Source: Rhodothermales bacterium (lineage in GTDB: Bacteria > Bacteroidota > Rhodothermia > Rhodothermales > JAHQVL01). From it: a stretch of DNA of 55,946 bases. The stretch spans positions 1-55,946 of the forward strand of contig JBGCEN010000281.1 of assembly GCA_045106435.1 (NCBI GenBank). Reading direction: 5' to 3'. Below the pieces are notes generated by a model that had not been told where the DNA came from, searched no databases, and saw nothing but the letters and a program-made list of their open reading frames with translations. The position numbers and the translations under genes were made by a program. Below, piece by piece: positions 1,536 through 10,342 of the stretch; position 1 is the first letter of the stretch, and every line of letters begins with the position of its first letter.

Positions 1536-3071
1536 ATGCGCTCACTTACGTTAAAACTTATTCTTGCATTTGTAGCCATTTGCATCATTCAGGCAGGGCT
1601 TGTTGCCATGCTTGTACGAGATTCAACCCACCGATCGTTTGATCGATTTGTACAGGAAGATGCCATTCAGTCGTTTATGCAGGAGGCAACGGCCCACTAC
1701 CAGACAAATAACAGTTGGGAAGGATTACGGGCTGCACTTCCATCCTTGCGGCTGGCATCAGGCAGAAATGACCGTCCACCGCCACCGATGCGCAATAACC
1801 AACCCCCACCACCTCGCGGCGGGCCACCTCCACAGCGCGATGGTGTAAGAAATCCCGAGAGACGCAATTCGAATAATAACCAAACAAACCTGCAACCAAA
1901 CAGCCAAAAGAATAATCCACCGCTACAAAAACGCAACAATCCAGGTAGACCAGGCCCAAGCCCCGGAAGTAAAGCACCATTTTTTGGTCTCGCTGATACA
2001 ACCGGCATGGTACTCCTGCCAAACGAGTTATTTGCAGCCGGCCAGACGCTCACCCCGGCCGAGCTTAAAAAAGGGAAGCCGTTATTCATCGATGAGCAAT
2101 TTCTGGCCATTGTGCTCATGCCATCGGAACGGGTACCACTCAGTACGCAAGCCAGAGCATTTATGGCAAGCTCAGATACTGCCCTTTTTTATGCGCTTCT
2201 TGCTGCCTTAAGCGTTTCGCTCGTGCTCGGACTCTGGTTTACCAGAACGTATCTAAAACCAGTACAAGAACTTACAACAGCAGCAAAAGGACTGGCCCAG
2301 GGCCAAGCTCAAGAACCGGTACCCGTTCGTACACGGGATGAAATTGGCACCCTGACGGCCGCGTTTAACCAGATGAACGTGAAACTGGACCGCTCAAAGA
2401 CCTTGCGCCGGCAAATGACGGCTGATATTGCGCATGAGCTACGTACACCGCTGACTGTATTGACCGGCTACCTGGAAGCATTGCGTGATGGAGATCTTCA
2501 GCCAAACAAAGAGCGCATGGAGATGATGTACACAGAAGCAAAGCATCTGCAGCGACTGGTTGAGGATCTTAGATTGCTCTCTCTGGCAGATGCAGGTGAA
2601 TTACCGCTTGTACACGAATCAGTCTCTCCCCACGATCTACTGCAACGCGTGCAGACATCCTTCGCCAAGCAAGCGAATGATGCATCCATAAAGATCAATG
2701 TAGAAGCGCCGGCTACGTTAAACCGCGTTTCACTGGATCCTGTGAGAATGCTCCAGGTCCTTACCAATCTCGTCAGCAATGCACTCCGATATACACCCGC
2801 TGGCGGCACAATTACCCTGGGTGTAGAAGCCTCAGGAGATGAAGTTGTATTTTTAGTTCAAGACTCAGGCGCCGGCATCCCCGAAGAGATGCTACCGCAT
2901 ATTTTTGATCGTTTTTACAAGGCAGATCAATCCCGGCAGCAACACTTGATTACTTCAGGATTGGGATTGGCCATTGCCAAATCTATTGTTGAAGCACACA
3001 AAGGGAAGATCTCGGTATCGTCAGAGAAAGACAACGGCACTGCGTTTGAAATCAGGCTTCCGGGCATATAA
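1536..3071 (+). CDS. Membrane sensor histidine kinase (BaeS-like; two TM helices, HAMP, HisKA, HATPase_c)
   Basis: HAMP RDEIGTLTAAFNQM; H-box IAHELRTPLT; N-box NLVSNALRY; G1 DSGAGI; F-box IFDRFYK; G2 GLGLAIA. Confidence 0.93.
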   Translation: MRSLTLKLILAFVAICIIQAGLVAMLVRDSTHRSFDRFVQEDAIQSFMQEATAHYQTNNSWEGLRAALPSLRLASGRNDRPPPPMRNNQPPPPRGGPPPQRDGVRNPERRNSNNNQTNLQPNSQKNNPPLQKRNNPGRPGPSPGSKAPFFGLADTTGMVLLPNELFAAGQTLTPAELKKGKPLFIDEQFLAIVLMPSERVPLSTQARAFMASSDTALFYALLAALSVSLVLGLWFTRTYLKPVQELTTAAKGLAQGQAQEPVPVRTRDEIGTLTAAFNQMNVKLDRSKTLRRQMTADIAHELRTPLTVLTGYLEALRDGDLQPNKERMEMMYTEAKHLQRLVEDLRLLSLADAGELPLVHESVSPHDLLQRVQTSFAKQANDASIKINVEAPATLNRVSLDPVRMLQVLTNLVSNALRYTPAGGTITLGVEASGDEVVFLVQDSGAGIPEEMLPHIFDRFYKADQSRQQHLITSGLGLAIAKSIVEAHKGKISVSSEKDNGTAFEIRLPGI

Positions 3072-3083
3072 TTTAGCCACTGC

Positions 3084-3773
3084 TCAGCCACTGTCGGCAA
3101 ATCGATAGCCGGCGCCGAAGACTGTTTCTATGTAGGTCGGATTTGCACTATCAGGTTCGATCTTGGTACGCAGGTTTCGTATATGCACATCAACTGTACG
3201 CTCAACACCTTCCACGGCAATATTGTGCAGTTTTTCCAGCAACTGTGCCCGCGAATATACGCGCCCCGGATGCCCCATCATTGTGGCGAGTAATTCAAAC
3301 TCTGTCGGCGTGAGCCTTACTTCTTTCCCCTCAACCAGTACACGGTATTTATCTTTATCGAGTACGATACCGCCAGCCTTCAGTACTGCATCTACATCGG
3401 TTTCTGATGACTCAACCCGGCGCAAAACAGCCTTTATTCTAGCAACCAGTTCGCGCATGCCAAAAGGCTTCGTTACATAATCATCTGCCCCTAACTCCAG
3501 TCCAACCACCTTGTCTGTTTCATCAACCCGTGCTGTGAGCAGAATGATGGGTGTTTTATTTTCCTGGCGATGAATGCGCATGAATTCCATACCATCCAAT
3601 TCAGGCATCATAACATCCAATAGAATAAGATGCGGACGAAACTCTCTCGCCTTAAACAAAGCCTCTCTCCCATTAGCGGCTGTTTCTATCTCAAAACCGT
3701 GCTCGGCCAAGTACTCTTTGAGCATATGCCGCACGTTTAACTCGTCATCTACTACTAATATTTTCTTAGCCAA
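3084..3773 (-). CDS. OmpR/PhoB-family response regulator
   Basis: Receiver ILVVDD, DVMMPELDG, KPF; winged helix LTPTEFELL, RTVDVHIRNLRTKI, TVFGAGYRF. TTG start. Confidence 0.95.
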   Translation of the reverse strand: MAKKILVVDDELNVRHMLKEYLAEHGFEIETAANGREALFKAREFRPHLILLDVMMPELDGMEFMRIHRQENKTPIILLTARVDETDKVVGLELGADDYVTKPFGMRELVARIKAVLRRVESSETDVDAVLKAGGIVLDKDKYRVLVEGKEVRLTPTEFELLATMMGHPGRVYSRAQLLEKLHNIAVEGVERTVDVHIRNLRTKIEPDSANPTYIETVFGAGYRFADSG

Positions 3774-3901
3774 GTGCTACACCCTTCGAAGTTTTCAACT
3801 CAGTATTGCCCGATACGGCCAACAGGTACTCTTTTAACATGTCTGGTTCCTTTCGAACCTGCCAACACGCCCAAACTGGCAAATTTCGCATAAAATCGCA
3901 A

Positions 3902-3956
3902 TGGTACAATCCTTGTACAGCAGACCCATACCCAACCCAAGCTCTCCCCAAGGGCT
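3902..3956 (+). promoter_or_regulatory. Sigma54-like -24/-12 element (TGGTAC-AATCC-TTGTA, 3902-3917) followed by hairpin AGCTCT-CCCCA-AGGGCT (3940-3956)
   Basis: Same block with the same spacing upstream of the paralogous S8 gene at 7173-7227. GG-N10-GT rather than canonical GG-N10-GC. Confidence 0.5.
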
Positions 3957-4033
3957 GCCACCAGAGGACTTCATTACCTAGTTTCTTCACACAGGCGTGT
4001 AGATAGATTTCTATCCGTTTTATTGATGGTGAC

Positions 4034-6457
4034 ATGAAGCAAACTCCCGCTCGTAATCAATACAACTCAAACCGTTGGATTACGTTACTGATCGCTGGTT
4101 TAATATTTTTTAGCCCCGCAATTTTACAAGGATGCGACGGATTAACGGGGATTGCCCCGCACGAAGAAGAGACGCTTCAAACACCCCGAAATGAGCAAAT
4201 AAAGCGAGTCAATAAATTAAGGCATTCCAACCTTTTGGAAAATGCAAGCCGGCTAACAATGGATTCTGCCGGCAAATCCGGGTCCCTGGCAATCAGCCTA
4301 TTCCTTTCTTTTAACGTCTATGAAGCCGACGGCATCACTCCGCGTCTTCTAAACAGATTTGAAACAACCAATCGTATTCTCGAAGAGTACGGCATTACGC
4401 GCAGGGTGCTTGAGAAATATGGAATTACCCATCGGATATTAAACGAATACGCAATTACGCGACGCATATTAAATCAGTACGGCGTAACGAGGCGCGTGCT
4501 TGAGAAGTATGGCATCACGCCCAGACTCCTGTCTCAATTCAACGACCAGGCCACGCCTGAATTGCTTGCGGATTATGATGTTTCAGACGACGTGCTGCTT
4601 AGCGAAGGCCTGACGCAGGCGGAAATAGATGATTTCAACAGGCTTTCCGCTTTACTTACAGACTTTAACATCACCATTGAGGAATTTGTAGAGGGGCTCG
4701 AGTCTGCTGTGCAGGAAATACGCGTCAAAATATCAATTGATGGCGCAAACCTGGGTATTTCTATTGAATTGGCCTCTGCCATGCTCGAAGCCTTCCTGGA
4801 AGAAATTGGTGATGATGAAGATATTCTTTTTGCAGAGCCAGACATAACCATCGACACTGCATTACTTGGAACGACAAGTGGTGAGTGGTATGACAAGCAG
4901 GTCATCCCCTGGGGCATTACGCACACGGAAACTCCAATACCCACTTTCTTCGACCTGTTTACGGCCGGCTATGCTGCAAAAAACCCTGTACACGTATTTA
5001 TCCTTGATTCCGGAGCGCTGGAAAACTCAATGTGGGATGATCTTTACTATGTTGAAAAGAAAGACTTCACCATGCTGTTTGAAAACCCTGATCAGCTAGA
5101 ATGGGATGAGGATCTTGCAGAAGATGTGACCGGATTTGACCCGGGTGATCTTGGAAATCCGTATGATGAATCTGGACATGGTACACACATCGCCGGCACC
5201 ATTGGGGCAAATAATGACCTTATCGGTGTGGTTGGGGTCGCGCCCTTCGTCAGAATACATAGCCTTAAGGTGCTCACCAAAGAAGGCCGCACAGACATAA
5301 CAACCCTACTGGCTGCTGTAGACTATGTTACGCGCACCAAAGAGGCCAATCCTGAGTGGCCAATTGTGGTCAATATGAGTCTTGGTGTTGATATTGGCAC
5401 CACCTCGTATAATATCCTCGACGAAGCCGTTAAAGAATCCATTTCAAAAGGAGTTGTATACGTCGCCGCAGCAGGCAACAACGGTGAAGATGCGTCCACG
5501 TATTCTCCTGCACATGTCGAAGAGGTTATTACTGTCGGTGCGTACAATGAACAAAGCGAATTTAGCAGCTTCTCCAACCACGGCACTCATGTAGATATTC
5601 TTGCTCCCGGCGAAAACATTATCTCGCTGTCACATATTATCGAAGACACCCAGTCTTTTGAAAGTGTTTTAGCAAGTGGCACATCCCAGGCTGCGCCACA
5701 TGTTACCGGGGCAATTGCGCGTTATCTGGGAGAAAACCCATACGTAAATGCCGGCCAGGTAGCCAAAGCATTGCAAACCTCGGCAAATACAGTCATTACA
5801 GGTGTACCTAACGGGACTACCAATAAATCGCTCAATGTGAATGTCCTACTGCAAGACGTCTTGGTCCTGGAAGAAGGAGAACTCATCCAAGATCCATACT
5901 ATGTGGATGAAAACAAGTCTTTAACCGATGCCTCATCATCAACGGATGCTTCGAATGATGACTCTGGCTCAAGCAATAGCACTGGATTCTTCACCATGGA
6001 TGACTTTTCTACGCAGGAATACAGTGGAAGCCATGGAAGTACAGACTGGTCAGGAGACTGGATTGAATCAGGCGAATCAAATGGATATGCAAAAGGTGAT
6101 TTCCGCGTAATAGCTGACAGTAAATGTGCGGAAGGACACTGCTTGCGGATTGATACAGACAAAGAAAACAAAGCCTTGTATCGTGCTGTGGACTTGAGCG
6201 GGAGTACATCTCCGACCCTCTCTTTCGACTATAGAAGAAAAGATCTTGAGTCATCGAACTTGCACCTGGAGGTTTCCAGCGACGCCGGCGCCACCTGGTC
6301 CAGAATTTTCACCTTTAGCAATGGGAATGATGCTGCGCAAGTCCAAAAAACTCTGGACATCTCGAAATTCGTAAGCAGTACAACCCAAATCAGATTTATC
6401 GTGAATGGACAAGGCGACAATTATGTATTCATCGACAACGTCCAAATTTCATTCTAA
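4034..6457 (+). CDS. Lipoprotein S8 subtilase A: I9-like prodomain with seven 10-aa repeats, catalytic domain and C-terminal beta-sandwich domain
   Basis: Lipobox LQG-C34; prodomain end DEDILFAEPD; triad D325 (ILDSG), H382 (GHGTHIAG), S551 (GTSQAAPHV); oxyanion AAGN; repeats at aa 101-170. Confidence 0.92.
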   Translation: MKQTPARNQYNSNRWITLLIAGLIFFSPAILQGCDGLTGIAPHEEETLQTPRNEQIKRVNKLRHSNLLENASRLTMDSAGKSGSLAISLFLSFNVYEADGITPRLLNRFETTNRILEEYGITRRVLEKYGITHRILNEYAITRRILNQYGVTRRVLEKYGITPRLLSQFNDQATPELLADYDVSDDVLLSEGLTQAEIDDFNRLSALLTDFNITIEEFVEGLESAVQEIRVKISIDGANLGISIELASAMLEAFLEEIGDDEDILFAEPDITIDTALLGTTSGEWYDKQVIPWGITHTETPIPTFFDLFTAGYAAKNPVHVFILDSGALENSMWDDLYYVEKKDFTMLFENPDQLEWDEDLAEDVTGFDPGDLGNPYDESGHGTHIAGTIGANNDLIGVVGVAPFVRIHSLKVLTKEGRTDITTLLAAVDYVTRTKEANPEWPIVVNMSLGVDIGTTSYNILDEAVKESISKGVVYVAAAGNNGEDASTYSPAHVEEVITVGAYNEQSEFSSFSNHGTHVDILAPGENIISLSHIIEDTQSFESVLASGTSQAAPHVTGAIARYLGENPYVNAGQVAKALQTSANTVITGVPNGTTNKSLNVNVLLQDVLVLEEGELIQDPYYVDENKSLTDASSSTDASNDDSGSSNSTGFFTMDDFSTQEYSGSHGSTDWSGDWIESGESNGYAKGDFRVIADSKCAEGHCLRIDTDKENKALYRAVDLSGSTSPTLSFDYRRKDLESSNLHLEVSSDAGATWSRIFTFSNGNDAAQVQKTLDISKFVSSTTQIRFIVNGQGDNYVFIDNVQISF

Positions 6458-6564
6458 TACTGTAATACAAACCGGACTTCCTGGGAAAAGGTAGTGCTTA
6501 CCACGGCCCCAGGCAGTCAATCAACCACCATTTTAAACCATCAATACAAACCAACACAAATACT

Positions 6565-6648
6565 ATGTTTGATTATCTATGGGACTTCTTTTTCGGCGGT
6601 AGCGGAGACGACATGGACTCTACAGAACGTGTTTTTGATCGCTTCTAA
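6565..6648 (+). CDS. Small peptide ORF copy 1, 27 aa: MFDYLWDFFFGGSGDDMDSTERVFDRF
   Basis: ATG 6565 to TAA 6648. Homologous to three other intact ORFs in the window; differences from copy 3 are mostly synonymous. Confidence 0.8.
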   Translation: MFDYLWDFFFGGSGDDMDSTERVFDRF

Positions 6649-6733
6649 TCCATCTTGCATCTAACCTACTCCACTTTCTCACCAGTACTTTATTCCACCC
6701 GCGTTTTTTAAACCTAAAACCAATAATTAAACC

Positions 6734-6817
6734 ATGCTTGATTATCTATGGGACCTGTTCTTTGGCGGCGACTCAGAAGAGTTAAACTCCACCCAACGTA
6801 TTTTTGACCGCTATTAA
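6734..6817 (+). CDS. Small peptide ORF copy 2, 27 aa: MLDYLWDLFFGGDSEELNSTQRIFDRY
   Basis: ATG 6734 to TAA 6817; conserved DYLWD..FFGG and RIFDRY ends; A-rich upstream region. Confidence 0.8.
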   Translation: MLDYLWDLFFGGDSEELNSTQRIFDRY

Positions 6818-6819
6818 AG

Positions 6820-6892
6820 CGTCATGCCAAACCATATGCTCAACTTGATTGGGTAGGGCTTGTCTGGATCCTGAATCAAGTCCAGGATGACG
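6820..6892. repeat. REP/MITE-like imperfect palindrome with CGTCAT...ATGACG ends
   Basis: The left arm contains caacttgatt and the right arm is gatcctgaatcaagtccaggatgacg. Same terminal hexamers as the element at 22405-22517. Confidence 0.55.
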
Positions 6893-7172
6893 TTTTGCTA
6901 AGTTGTGACATAGAGACAGGACTTGATCGAAGAAAACACGGTAATTTGCCTTGCCAGACAAGACAGCTTTTTTAAACTCCTAATCCCGCATCAATAACAA
7001 CAACCTGTACACGCACAAGACAAACTTTTTTGTCAGTATTTCAATCGCTCCACTTAAACCACTAATTCAACAACTACCACTAGCTATGTTAAAATGTACC
7101 CTTTGACCTTTACGGGTTTCTTTTTGAATCCACCCAAGCAGACAAAGCCGCTAATTTCGCCTAAAATTGTGC

Positions 7173-7227
7173 TGGCACAATCCTTGTAAAAGATATTTGC
7201 ACCCTACCAAAGCTCTCCCCAAGGGCT
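7173..7227 (+). promoter_or_regulatory. Sigma54-like -24/-12 element (TGGCAC-AATCC-TTGTA, 7173-7188) followed by hairpin AGCTCT-CCCCA-AGGGCT (7211-7227)
   Basis: Matches the 3902-3956 block, with an identical 22-nt gap between promoter element and hairpin. Confidence 0.55.
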
Positions 7228-7305
7228 TACATCAAAGGACTTCATCATTCCCGGCTCTACTGGAATGTGCGCAGATGGATTTAATAATCTATCTTGGAAA
7301 CTTAA

Positions 7306-9213
7306 ATGGACAATATTGCTCCCCGCAGTAACCCACTTCATAAACGCTGGATTACTTTAGGTATTGCTGGTTTGCTCTTCATAAGCCCCAGCGTATTGCA
7401 AGGTTGCGATGCCCTGACCGGCGCTGAAGAAAATGAAGCTCAACTACAATTTGACGACCGCGTTAACGTAAAAGCGGCTCAACAAGAAAACAAACTTAGA
7501 CACCCTGCGCTTCTGACTGGCGCAAAAAGACAATTTACTGGTTCAGCTGGTAAAACAGGCGAGGCCACAAGTCTCTTCCTTGCATTCAACGGGTACGAAG
7601 CAGATGGCATTACCCCACGTGTGCTCAACAAATTCGAAGTCACGAATCGCATCCTTGAGGAATACGGCATCACGCGACGCGTATTAGGCAAATATGGAAT
7701 CACAAAACGTGTTTTAAGCCAATATGATGTTACCAGACGCATTCTCCAGCAATACGATATAACGCGGCGCATCCTGGACAAATATGGCATAACACCACGC
7801 GTTCTGAGTAAATACAATGACCAGCTTTCAGTTGATCTTTTAAACAGCAATGGACTCACTGCCGACGTCCTTGCAGAAGAAGGATTAACGCAAGAGGATC
7901 TGGATGACTTCAACAACCTCTCCCGTCTACTTAACGAACATGATCTAACCCTGGAAACGTTTGTTGCAGAGCTAGACGCAGCCATATCATCCATTCGAGT
8001 CAAAATATTTATCGATGGTGTTCACCTGGGCGTTTCTATCGAACTAAACTCTGATCTACTTGCCGATCTGCTTGATGAAATAGCAGATGATCCAGACATT
8101 CTGTTCGTCGAGCCAGACATAACAATTCAAATCTCTGAGTTGGGGATGTTGAGCGACGGTAATCAGCAGAATCAGATTATCCCCTGGGGCAATACAAATG
8201 TTGACGCGGTGACCTCATCATCAGAAGCGATGTGGACTGCCAAATATTTCACAAATCAATTACGCGTATATGTCCTTGATTCAGGATCAATGAATACTTC
8301 GGGCTGGGATGATGCCATGGTGGAAGAACAAAAAGACTTCACGATGCTTTTCGAGAACCCGGATGAAATGTACTGGGAAGAAGATGATGCTCAGGATGTT
8401 ACAGGATTTGACCCAGGTACGCGAGGCAATCCACTAGACGAATCCGGGCATGGGTCGCACGTCGCCGGCACCATTGGCGCAATGAATAACAAGTTCGGAA
8501 TTATCGGTGTCGCACCGGGTGTATCCATCCATAGCTTAAAAGTGCTGACCAAAGAAGGCAGAACCGACATCACAACCTTACTTGCAGCGGTAGACTATGT
8601 AACACGTGCCAAGCTTAACAACCCAGCCATTCCTATGGTTGTGAACATGAGTCTGGGCGTTGACATTGGGACCACAACCTACAACGTGCTTGATGAAGCC
8701 ATCGAAGCTTCGATTGAGGCTGGCGTCATCTACGTAGTTGCAGCCGGCAATGATGGACAAAACGCTGCCACCTATTCACCAGCACACGTAACTGGTGCAA
8801 TCACGGTTGGTGCTTACAACGAACAGAACTTGTTCTCTTCCTTCTCCAACTATGGATCAAGTGTGGACATTCTTGCGCCGGGTGAAAATATCATTTCACT
8901 GTCACACAAGATCAACGAGACAAAGTCATTTGAGACAATCCTGGCAAGCGGTACGTCGCATGCAGCCCCTTATGTGACTGGCGCTGTTGCCTGGTATTTG
9001 GGCGACAACCCAAATGCAACCGCCGCGCAGGTCAAAGCTGCTTTGCTTGAATCCGCAAACACGGAAATTAACGGTGTCCCTGCCACCACAACGTTAAAAG
9101 CGCTCAATGTGGGCCGATTCACCGGGACAGCACAGGATACGGCTGCCGATGCCTCGGTAGATTCCATCAACGACGACGTCTTCACCAATGTCAAAAAAGA
9201 TAAAAAATGGTAA
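7306..9213 (+). CDS. Lipoprotein S8 subtilase B, paralog of 4034-6457 lacking the C-terminal beta-sandwich domain
   Basis: Lipobox LQG-C34; seven 10-aa repeats at aa 102-171; DDPDILFVEPD; D325 (VLDSG), H382 (GHGSHVAG), S551 (GTSHAAPYV). Confidence 0.92.
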   Translation: MDNIAPRSNPLHKRWITLGIAGLLFISPSVLQGCDALTGAEENEAQLQFDDRVNVKAAQQENKLRHPALLTGAKRQFTGSAGKTGEATSLFLAFNGYEADGITPRVLNKFEVTNRILEEYGITRRVLGKYGITKRVLSQYDVTRRILQQYDITRRILDKYGITPRVLSKYNDQLSVDLLNSNGLTADVLAEEGLTQEDLDDFNNLSRLLNEHDLTLETFVAELDAAISSIRVKIFIDGVHLGVSIELNSDLLADLLDEIADDPDILFVEPDITIQISELGMLSDGNQQNQIIPWGNTNVDAVTSSSEAMWTAKYFTNQLRVYVLDSGSMNTSGWDDAMVEEQKDFTMLFENPDEMYWEEDDAQDVTGFDPGTRGNPLDESGHGSHVAGTIGAMNNKFGIIGVAPGVSIHSLKVLTKEGRTDITTLLAAVDYVTRAKLNNPAIPMVVNMSLGVDIGTTTYNVLDEAIEASIEAGVIYVVAAGNDGQNAATYSPAHVTGAITVGAYNEQNLFSSFSNYGSSVDILAPGENIISLSHKINETKSFETILASGTSHAAPYVTGAVAWYLGDNPNATAAQVKAALLESANTEINGVPATTTLKALNVGRFTGTAQDTAADASVDSINDDVFTNVKKDKKW

Positions 9214-9282
9214 ACAGCCTCACCAGTATCAACATCTCTTAAATCTAGCTACAACACACCTTTACATAAACAGGAAAAAACT

Positions 9283-9366
9283 ATGTTTGACTATATATGG
9301 GATTTCTTTTTCGGCGGCGGCGGAGACGACATGGACTCAACAGAACGCGTTTTTGATCGGTTCTAA
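9283..9366 (+). CDS. Small peptide ORF copy 3, 27 aa: MFDYIWDFFFGGGGDDMDSTERVFDRF
   Basis: ATG 9283 to TAA 9366; upstream CAGGAAAAAACT (AGGA SD-like); 25/27 identical to copy 1. Confidence 0.82.
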   Translation: MFDYIWDFFFGGGGDDMDSTERVFDRF

Positions 9367-9451
9367 TCTGTAAGTATCCAATCCGCAATTCCGTCCCACA
9401 AGCGCATGATTTCACCCGCTTCCTTATGAACCTGTAACCATCAATTAAGCT

Positions 9452-9532
9452 ATGTATTGACACCTCCCAAACCTGTTCTTCGGCGGCGACTCAAGTAGAT
9501 GCAGACTCCATCCGATGCGTTTTGATCGCTCC
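9452..9532 (+). pseudogene. Decayed copy 4 of the small peptide family
   Basis: ATG TAT TGA (stop at codon 3), then AAC CTG TTC TTC GGC GGC GAC TCA (NLFFGGDS) and TTT GAT CGC (FDR). The middle reads VDADSIRCV only in a shifted frame. Confidence 0.65.
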
Positions 9533-9611
9533 TGGCCGGCACGTACTCACCTAAACCAACACTGTAAACAAAACACGCTACATTCGCTACACTCTAAAAA
9601 TCAGGAAAAAT

Positions 9612-9692
9612 ATGTTTGATTATCTATGGGACTTCTTTTTTGGCGGCGATTCTCCCGACGTACAGTCGCAACGCGTCTTCGACCGCTTTTAA
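9612..9692 (+). CDS. Small peptide ORF copy 5, 26 aa: MFDYLWDFFFGGDSPDVQSQRVFDRF
   Basis: ATG 9612 to TAA 9692; upstream TCAGGAAAAAT (AGGA SD-like); conserved termini. Confidence 0.82.
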   Translation: MFDYLWDFFFGGDSPDVQSQRVFDRF

Positions 9693-9745
9693 TTCTCACA
9701 CTTCATTACGACCTGGCCATCTGACGTATGGCAAGAAATACACAA

Positions 9746-9781
9746 AAAGAGCCGGCAGGCTCATCGACCTGCCGGCTCTTT
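9746..9781. terminator. Intrinsic terminator hairpin closing the S8/peptide cassettes
   Basis: AAAGAGCCGGCAGG / 8-nt loop / CCTGCCGGCTCTTT, a perfect 14-bp stem with A and T flanks. Confidence 0.8.
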
Positions 9782-9835
9782 AATTTCACAATCACCCGAT
9801 GTACTCCTGTATTTTTTCTCTGAAGTTTATCAACC

Positions 9836-10264
9836 ATGCGATTCTTTACGGCTGTTCTCTTGATCCTCCTGATGACTTTTGCACTCGGTGACTATCTGGT
9901 GAAGGAGCAAGAAGACAAAAAAATTGCACTCATCACCCCTAAAGATGCCAATGCCCAGTATGAAAAAGGCTTTCTCATCTACAAAACACACTGCCAAAAT
10001 TGTCATGGAAAACATGCGGACGGGAAAGGTAAATTCCCTGGACTAGAGAATCACACCCCTACAGATTTCACGTCTGCCGCGTTCGACAAAACGCCTAAAG
10101 AAATGAGGCAAGTAATTCGCGATGGCGGATTAGCATCGGGACTGGATCCTCTCATGCCCAAGTGGGACACAATTCTGAGCGAAACGGAAATCCGGCAGGT
10201 GGTTTACTTCATCTACACGGTTCATGAAGAAGGAGAAATGCGCAAGCGGATTCGAACCAGGTAG
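9836..10264 (+). CDS. Class I monoheme cytochrome c with N-terminal membrane anchor or signal
   Basis: CQNCH heme motif; probable axial Met in LMPKW; hydrophobic N-terminus. Confidence 0.85.
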   Translation: MRFFTAVLLILLMTFALGDYLVKEQEDKKIALITPKDANAQYEKGFLIYKTHCQNCHGKHADGKGKFPGLENHTPTDFTSAAFDKTPKEMRQVIRDGGLASGLDPLMPKWDTILSETEIRQVVYFIYTVHEEGEMRKRIRTR

Positions 10265-10342
10265 GCAATTCGAGAGATCTCTCAAATTGAAACAGGAATG
10301 TCTAATATGGCTTTTTAATAGCTTCCGGCTAAGGGCTGAAGA

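Follow-up and report, generated by a model that had tools for sequence, protein, structure and literature searches.

Separable subtilase and small-peptide gene families probably joined by insertion and tandem duplication in a Rhodothermales bacterium

Does a protease gene that is followed by a row of very small open reading frames (ORFs) form one functional system with them? The question is raised by a locus in a Rhodothermales bacterium (assembly GCA_045106435.1), located on a 55,946-nt stretch of contig JBGCEN010000281.1 that was analyzed as a whole and is called the window here. Between a divergently transcribed gene for an OmpR-type response regulator and a cytochrome c gene, two tandem units of ~3.27 kb each show the same layout, in which an upstream block is followed by the gene of an S8 subtilase (S8-A or S8-B) and then by ORFs of 26-27 amino acids (P1 and P2 after S8-A; P3, a decayed copy and P4 after S8-B). 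The original prediction, made from the sequence alone, described a dedicated protease/peptide module whose promoter, protease and peptides had been retained in both copies. All of the described elements are present at the coordinates given, and each cassette holds the upstream block, the S8 gene and intact peptide genes; of the two to three homologous peptide ORFs announced per unit, two are intact in each, and the second cassette has one pseudogene in addition. The interpretation as a module fared less well. The locus probably joins two separable gene families that insertion and tandem duplication brought together in a single lineage; a conserved protease-peptide system is probably not involved.

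In relatives of the organism, the peptide gene and the S8 gene are situated at separate places. The gene order of one congener (G001), ADH, histidine kinase, response regulator on the minus strand, peptide, cytochrome c, PEGA, BamB and Omp85, equals that of the window minus the S8 cassettes. A second congener (G002) has the response regulator, the peptide and the cytochrome c genes, and a metagenome contig (P0048) has the peptide and the cytochrome c genes, with no S8 gene at either place. The repeat-bearing S8 orthologues of the two congeners (654 aa with a poly-Asp tail in G001; 801 aa with a C-terminal domain like that of S8-A in G002) are encoded on other contigs and are not followed by a peptide. 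Long poly-Asp tails (at least 25 Asp residues in the G001 protein, L049 8260-10224) also occur in the homologues P0014 and P0047, while the tail of S8-B is Lys-rich. The original prediction named two sequence findings that would refute it, S8 homologues usually without downstream peptides and peptides at unrelated loci, and both were made. Searches by hidden Markov model (HMM), regular expression and eye found no peptide behind ~20 other S8 genes with repeats, which come from three families of the order (G001 and G002, and G150, G155, G252 and G253, the last four representing two other families) and from the metagenome contigs L057-L060 and L066-L068. Six or more peptide loci lack an S8 gene (G001, G002, P0048, G006, G003 and G007). 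In other genera, the peptide gene lies beside an acyltransferase-like membrane protein gene (G006) or a convergent ABC ATPase gene (G003, G007).

The peptide itself is very narrowly distributed. It was found in 6 of 285 genomes of the order, all of them in the window species' own family. Searching 1.84 billion representative proteins with a profile gave two true matches. Pattern scans of GTDB genomes and JGI metagenomes gave no peptides beyond those already found. A related-locus search with an alignment of six peptide sequences recovered only G001, plus false positives that carry 'MLDYLWDLFL' in a GlmU-like nucleotidyl/acetyltransferase of 454 aa from Balneolales metagenome-assembled genomes and soda-lake metagenomes (L061, L063, L064); the stretch MLDYLWDLFLKND of this protein is almost identical to the N-terminus of the peptides and was treated as a chance match.

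Adjacency of an S8 gene and a peptide gene was seen only in the window species, in a ~97% identical strain from host-associated data sets, in which both cassettes are present, and in one close relative (L065, GCA_964351915.1). The L065 contig reads ADH, S8, peptide, pseudogene, peptide, terminator and cytochrome c, and its S8 protein is 87% identical to S8-B over the N-terminal region. The L065 pseudogene starts with the same ATG-TAT-TGA as the decayed copy of the window, so the arrangement goes back to a shared ancestor and has no independent origin in L065; the three cases amount to a single evolutionary event. No S8-peptide operon recurring in independent lineages was found. The left part of the 4548-nt L065 contig passes directly from ADH to a cassette of the S8-B type, without histidine kinase, response regulator or first cassette, which implies either a deletion of ~5.7 kb or a different history.

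A probable history can be drawn from these arrangements. The ancestral form in the genus would have been a single peptide gene with its own terminator between the OmpR-type regulator gene and the cytochrome c gene. Before the window species and one close relative separated, an S8 gene would have landed, together with its promoter, just upstream of this peptide gene, and the peptide gene would have been copied locally. The unit of promoter, S8 gene, peptide a and peptide b would subsequently have been duplicated in tandem, after which one peptide copy decayed. The S8 proteins would be exported lipoproteins that are controlled by sigma-54 and mature by autoprocessing of the I9 type.

The upstream block fits this history. 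As had been predicted, it is duplicated: the block of S8-A (3847..3974, plus strand) is a direct repeat, with 72% identity, of the block of S8-B (7118..7245, plus strand). Each contains a sigma-54-like element, TGGTACAATCCTTGTA at 3902-3917 and TGGCACAATCCTTGTA at 7173-7188, which read TGG[CT]AC-AATCC-TTGT. A sigma-54 promoter is characterized by TGGCAC at -24 and TTGC at -12 with a 5-nt spacing, the presence of rpoN and an enhancer-binding activator; rpoN is encoded in the genome, and the -12 part of the elements has GT, not GC. The form TGGTA[CT]-N5-T[TA]G precedes the peptide-less S8 genes of G001 and G002, and the motif TGG[CT]A[CT]-N5-T[TA]G also stands before the L065 S8 gene, so that the element is conserved upstream of five S8 genes. 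Within the 56 kb of the window this pattern is found at just two places, both ~120-130 nt ahead of the start of an S8 gene; two occurrences are reached in 11 of 100 shuffles. Because the element also stands before S8 genes that have no peptide, the block belongs to the S8 gene and not to a protease-peptide operon; it is probably the S8 gene's own promoter region, of the sigma-54 type, and travels with it.

The peptide genes, on their part, look like constrained coding genes under purifying selection, judging from their patterns of substitution. The four intact copies, P1 (6565..6648, MFDYLWDFFFGGSGDDMDSTERVFDRF), P2 (6734..6817, MLDYLWDLFFGGDSEELNSTQRIFDRY), P3 (9283..9366, MFDYIWDFFFGGGGDDMDSTERVFDRF) and P4 (9612..9692, MFDYLWDFFFGGDSPDVQSQRVFDRF), all on the plus strand, are homologous with 14 invariant columns, and no others were found in the genome. 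P1 and P3 are 93% identical, with a proportion of synonymous differences (pS) of 0.41 and of nonsynonymous differences (pN) of 0.03. Homologues are present in the congeners G001 and G002, in another genus of the family (G006), in L065 (two copies) and on P0048, and weaker ones in a third genus of the family (G003 and G007). The family comprises peptides of 26-31 aa of the form M-[FL]-x-x-[ILF]-[WL]-x-[FLW]-[FLI]-[FT]-G-G, followed by an acidic linker and R-[VI]-[FLV]-D-R-[FY]-stop; the ATG, the F-G-G core and the D-R-[FY]-stop at the end are common to all 11 sequences, except that one member has G-E for G-G. Of 26 codon columns compared among the eight closest sequences, 17 vary at position 1, 10 at position 2 and 24 at position 3, and pairwise comparisons give pS of 0.4-1.0 against pN of 0.03-0.4, with dN/dS of ~0.05-0.35. 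Start and stop are conserved across genera, and AGGA or GAGG stands at Shine-Dalgarno distance before several of the copies. Low dN/dS, the conserved start and stop, the terminators of their own and a metatranscriptome contig over P4 together led us to regard the ORFs as real genes. Scans with Pfam and NCBIfam gave nothing for the peptides, and no description of such peptides was found in the literature; they are an undescribed small-ORF family of very narrow distribution.

P4, the copy proximal to the cytochrome c gene, is taken as the ancestral one, since the lone peptides of G001, G002 and P0048 and the second L065 peptide (L065b) are of the same '...VEPQRVFDR[FY]' type and stand at the position of P4. 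The decayed copy (~9453-9535, plus strand) is of the P2 type and begins ATG TAT TGA, with a stop at codon 3; this stop is shared with the L065 pseudogene, which indicates that the decay is old. About 70 nt 3' of the peptide gene of G001 (G001:C3; L006 1660-1707), a mini ORF of 15 aa, MYDFLRRLFRIFDRY, keeps the N-terminal M-x-D-F-L and a RIFDRY tail, while the GG/acidic middle is missing. This ORF may be a remnant left by an internal deletion or else a minimal member of the family.

Transcription signals point to short, separate peptide transcripts. The strong terminator announced after the last peptide is there: a hairpin with a T-tract at 9746-9781 on the plus strand (-34.5 kcal/mol, z = -4.84), for which Rfam gave only sub-threshold matches. 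An intrinsic terminator follows every lone or array-terminal copy (P4, L065b, G002, G003, G006 and G007). After P2, a terminator-like hairpin (6820-6904, plus strand, -27.3 kcal/mol) is followed by UUUUGC and belongs to a multi-copy element resembling repetitive extragenic palindromic sequences. About 13 partial copies of this element (24-55 nt, 89-100% identical) are found on other contigs of the genome, and metagenome contigs break at 6820-6904, where the reads show high depth and many loose ends. In a marine metatranscriptome, the sole contig that maps within 3700-50300 is 161 nt long (9547-9707), covers P4 and short flanks and has a depth of 2; it points weakly, though specifically, to a P4 transcript that is short and abundant. 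For P1 and P2, no RNA run turned up. The peptides have no signal peptide, and the C39 domain (PF03412) of an exporter is absent from the genome, which is 93.7% complete (the control search was positive in 7 of 14 genomes). From these two absences, the separate terminators and the RNA contig over P4 alone, we infer that the peptides are small proteins of the cytoplasm, translated from short transcripts of their own.

The S8 proteins can be described without reference to the peptides. S8-A (4034..6457, plus strand, 807 aa) and S8-B (7306..9213, plus strand, 635 aa) are 62% identical over 605 aa and match Pfam Peptidase_S8 with E-values of 3e-43 and 2e-43; their PF00082 scores of 148-149 bits against a cut-off of 21.8 place them in the S8 family. 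The columns of the catalytic residues D325, H382 and S551 are invariant in 40 homologues. S8-A has an additional C-terminal domain that resembles MAM or choice-of-anchor-J domains, with weak matches to MAM and NF038128. Both proteins start with a hydrophobic N-terminus that ends in L-Q-G-C, and Q32, G33 and C34 are nearly invariant in homologues. Taking a signal peptide that ends in a lipobox, [LVI][ASTVIQ][GAS]C, as the defining feature, and judging it by motif reading, we classify them as putative bacterial lipoproteins.

The seven 10-aa prodomain repeats, which the original prediction had reported together with the lipoprotein nature, are found in both enzymes. They span 4334..4543 (plus strand, aa 101-170) in S8-A, as read from the translation and a motif count, and 7609..7818 (plus strand, aa 102-171) in S8-B, where T.R[VI][LF]..[YF] matches seven times. 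The unit has the form [IV]T-x-R-[VIL]-L-x-x-[YF]-x and is present exactly seven times in each, while homologues have two (G005), three (P0043) or up to nine (P0042). In the subtilisin propeptide, the counterpart of 'AGK...LFLAFN.YEADG' is the start with strand 1, and that of 'IRVKIFIDGVHLGVSIEL...DDPDILFVEPD' is the part with strands 2-3, helix 2 and strand 4. In the AlphaFold2 model of S8-B (mean predicted local distance difference test score, pLDDT, 70), beta1 lies at 84-94, helices at 109-227, beta2-3 at 230-248, alpha2 at 249-259 and beta4 at 265-270, so that everything between strand 1 and strands 2-3, the seven repeats plus ~60 more residues, is modeled as helical; the helical prediction for the repeats is of low confidence, with pLDDT below 50 for aa 97-136. 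Foldseek aligned the catalytic domain of S8-B to proteinase K-type enzymes and subtilisin (E ~1e-20, template modeling score ~0.8 on the target) and ~400 columns to unprocessed pro-subtilisin E (3whi). The marks of an I9 prodomain are a PF05922 match and a beta-alpha-beta-beta-alpha-beta fold that precedes the catalytic domain; a Pfam scan of aa 1-300 gave no match, and PF05922 (I9) was not detected by sequence. The order of elements in the model fits I9 with an insertion, and the repeats would be a helical expansion inside an I9-like prodomain.

A second subfamily of S8 lipoproteins (~731 aa) carries (KVLDRY)n in the prodomain and is encoded on L058-L060. Repeat-bearing S8 lipoprotein genes stand in pairs or triples on L057-L060 (contigs of ENA ERZ26696514) and L050 (G002:C114), where the 731-aa type is combined with one or two decapeptide-repeat types and adjoins sulfatase genes; on the metagenome contigs L058-L060 only, S8 genes also lie beside genes for giant DUF8202/NHL proteins with type IX secretion tails. 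The sulfatase and DUF8202-NHL neighbourhood is probably the ancestral context of the repeat-bearing S8 genes.

Several observations weigh against mere juxtaposition, and the first concerns the claim that the peptide tail matches the protease repeat, which holds beyond chance, if modestly and over 8-10 residues. The tail D-S-T-E-R-V-F-D-R-F (T-x-R-V-F-D-R-F) fits the unit x-x-T-x-R-[VI]-[LF]-x-x-[YF]. When a position-specific scoring matrix (PSSM) built from 245 S8 repeat units only was applied to the C-termini of the 214,019 six-frame ORFs of the genome, the four peptides ranked 12th (P2), 127th, 128th and 304th, within the top 0.006-0.14%. The peptide HMM independently picked the second S8 subfamily, at the same position of the prodomain, through 'SPQRVLDRY KVLDRY KVLDRY KVLDRY', and the tail is nearly identical to this SPQRVLDRY(KVLDRY)n (compare 'EPQRVFDRY' in G002). 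Such likeness hints at a functional or evolutionary link beyond pure juxtaposition. Intact peptides also persist in both cassettes, with P1 and P3 still 93% identical, while the identity of the S8 paralogues has dropped to 62%. On the RNA side there is one contig, of depth 2, and the translation of the peptides is a prediction. Every genome that has the peptide also encodes an S8 protein of this prodomain type, a co-occurrence that has no statistical weight because the family comprises only eight genomes.

The reach of the likeness is short. Pairwise alignments against shuffled peptides gave p = 0.001-0.78, mostly 0.08-0.3 per peptide, and since these tests are mostly non-significant, likeness is claimed for the tail of 8-10 aa only. 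Comparison of the peptide profile with the S8 N-terminal profile by hhalign aligned one column and gave no homology. An apparent extended colinearity (shuffle z ~7) was discarded as inflated by averaging over homologous peptides, and the other high-scoring ORF C-termini (C192, C147 and others) were start-less frames overlapping real genes, not extra family members. The sharing of a motif between tail and repeat unit thus seems real but short, and does not itself show interaction. It fits descent of the tail from a prodomain unit, the reverse, or one short helical or cleavage motif that serves in both places, and to us it suggests a common origin or a loose relationship in trans rather than an obligate module.

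How far such a relationship in trans might go is the subject of one alternative, in which protease and peptide are a functional pair and the peptide is a free-standing mimic of the prodomain repeat acting on S8 proteases. The free C-terminus [VI]-[FL]-D-R-[FY]-COOH might occupy the S4-S1 subsites as a product-like ligand, with F/L as the hydrophobic residue at P4 and F/Y as the aromatic one at P1, and cleaved repeat units ending in L-x-x-Y could be ligands of the same kind. Alternatively, the peptide might compete for a partner of the exposed helical repeats and tune the timing of prodomain release or the activity. The PSSM ranks, the (KVLDRY)n subfamily with its repeats at the same prodomain position, the invariable ending at DR[FY], the location of the best-scoring S8-B windows within the repeat region, and adjacency kept in two species and both paralogous cassettes speak for it. 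It meets a problem of compartments, however: the S8 proteins are exported lipoproteins, whereas the peptides lack a signal peptide and no C39 exporter was found in the genome. In addition, peptide and S8 are unlinked in most genomes, S8 homologues of other families occur without any such peptide, and the profile and per-peptide comparisons give the mostly negative results described above. We therefore consider a functional pair unlikely. Stand-alone propeptide-like subtilase inhibitors are exemplified by PBI2 of yeast and POIA1 of Pleurotus. Like these, the peptides are separate products that resemble part of a prodomain and could act in trans; the known inhibitors, including the SUB1 propeptide-like protein of Plasmodium, each form a whole I9 fold of ~75 aa whose homology can be detected, whereas the peptides here have 26-31 aa, match one unit of 8-10 aa, carry no export signal and are unlinked to an S8 gene in most genomes. 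That inhibitors of this kind occur elsewhere, as with the Plasmodium protein (PMC6993865), is a point in favor of the mimic.

Two further explanations take the small size of the ORFs as their starting point. TnaC and SpeFL are leader peptides that stall at termination, and the conserved extreme C-terminus of the peptides at the stop codon recalls them. With a strong terminator behind it, 115-290 nt ahead of a cytochrome c gene on the same strand, a P4-type ORF would then control read-through into that gene, and the other copies would be duplicates without that role. The order of small ORF, hairpin with T-tract and cytochrome c gene is kept in five genomes of the genus, and in the window at most 55 nt are left for a separate cytochrome c promoter. 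The likeness to TnaC and SpeFL, a tiny ORF with a conserved end, a terminator and a downstream gene, is however limited to the P4-type copies. The peptides of G006, G003 and G007 have no downstream gene on the same strand, no alternative antiterminator pairing was evident on reading the sequence, the linker varies (26-31 aa in total) and so the spacing of the conserved N- and C-terminal parts is not fixed, and P1-P3 are under purifying selection though they do not precede the cytochrome c gene; attenuation is accordingly given little credence. Still less probable, to the point of being hardly credible, is an array of precursors of a ribosomally synthesized and post-translationally modified peptide (RiPP) or a pheromone, matured by the adjacent S8 protease in the manner of LanP or PatA, or by removal of a double-glycine leader after G11-G12. 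Several near-identical small ORFs do stand beside a subtilase gene, as in the LanP and PatA/PatG systems, and G-G is found at residues 11-12 in all but one family member, with hydrophobic residues at -4, -7 and -12. The precursor genes of RiPP clusters are accompanied by the gene of a modifying enzyme, such as LanB/C/M or a heterocyclase, and in most cases by a transporter gene. No modifying enzyme was found among the locus neighbours (ADH, histidine kinase, response regulator, cytochrome c and a PEGA-like protein), nor a transporter, the syntenic loci hold the same genes, and there is no recognition-sequence architecture; in congeners, moreover, the peptide occurs without the protease. The S8 proteins score 52-57 bits with the NCBIfam PatA/PatG model TIGR03895, far below its cut-off of 421, and the earlier view that the locus is neither a lanthipeptide nor a cyanobactin system can be upheld. 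Known double-glycine leaders are longer than 12 aa. Export by a peptidase-containing ABC transporter calls for a genome-encoded C39 peptidase-ABC transporter and for a leader that ends in GG and has ~15-25 aa; PF03412 is absent anywhere in the genome, and the putative leader has 12 aa.

None of these classes, the stand-alone I9-like inhibitors, the RiPP proteases and the stalling leaders, fits the peptides as a family. Juxtaposition of two families by insertion and tandem duplication probably explains the locus, and segmental duplication would in that case have imitated an operon-like "system". It would also add an unannotated small-protein family, missed by gene callers because its members are under 30 aa, to a poorly studied marine, host-associated lineage of Rhodothermales. 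If the mimicry were functional, the peptides would be a minimal, new class of genetically encoded trans-acting regulators of subtilase maturation; mimicry would then give a purpose to the repeat expansion of the I9-like prodomain and explain why the same unit occurs in two S8 subfamilies. In either case, the S8 family forms a distinct, testable subgroup with a lipoprotein anchor, a sigma-54-like promoter and two to nine repeats. Its members are new proteinase-K-like subtilases with an unusual, repeat-expanded I9-like prodomain. Like pro-subtilisin E (3whi), they have the D/H/S triad, a superposing catalytic domain and, at the N-terminus of the model, the order beta1 ... beta2-beta3-alpha2-beta4 with the typical I9 ending 'DDPDILFVEPD'. 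Unlike pro-subtilisin E, they appear to be lipoproteins, are preceded by a sigma-54-like element, escape detection by the Pfam I9 model, and have ~130 residues modeled as helical, including the two to nine decapeptide repeats, in place of the helix-1 region of I9.

The genes that bound the two cassettes are the syntenic anchors of the ancestral peptide locus. On the left, the OmpR-type response regulator (3084..3773, minus strand; Pfam Response_reg and Trans_reg_C) has orthologues that flank the lone peptide in G001 and G002. On the right, the gene for a membrane-anchored, mono-haem cytochrome c (9836..10264, plus strand; Pfam Cytochrome_CBB3 / Cytochrom_C) lies 3' of the peptide in five genomes of the genus. 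The adjoining histidine kinase (1536-3071 in the window) has a long low-complexity stretch rich in Pro, Asn and Gln at ~aa 70-150, within its presumed periplasmic loop. As judged by the region 3700-10300 of the window, the organism or close strains occur in metagenomes (runs X1-X20) from plant-associated material, coral, biofilm, seawater and sediment, and reach a depth of ~38x in runs whose labels name eukaryotic hosts; these occurrences suggest a marine, host-associated lifestyle.

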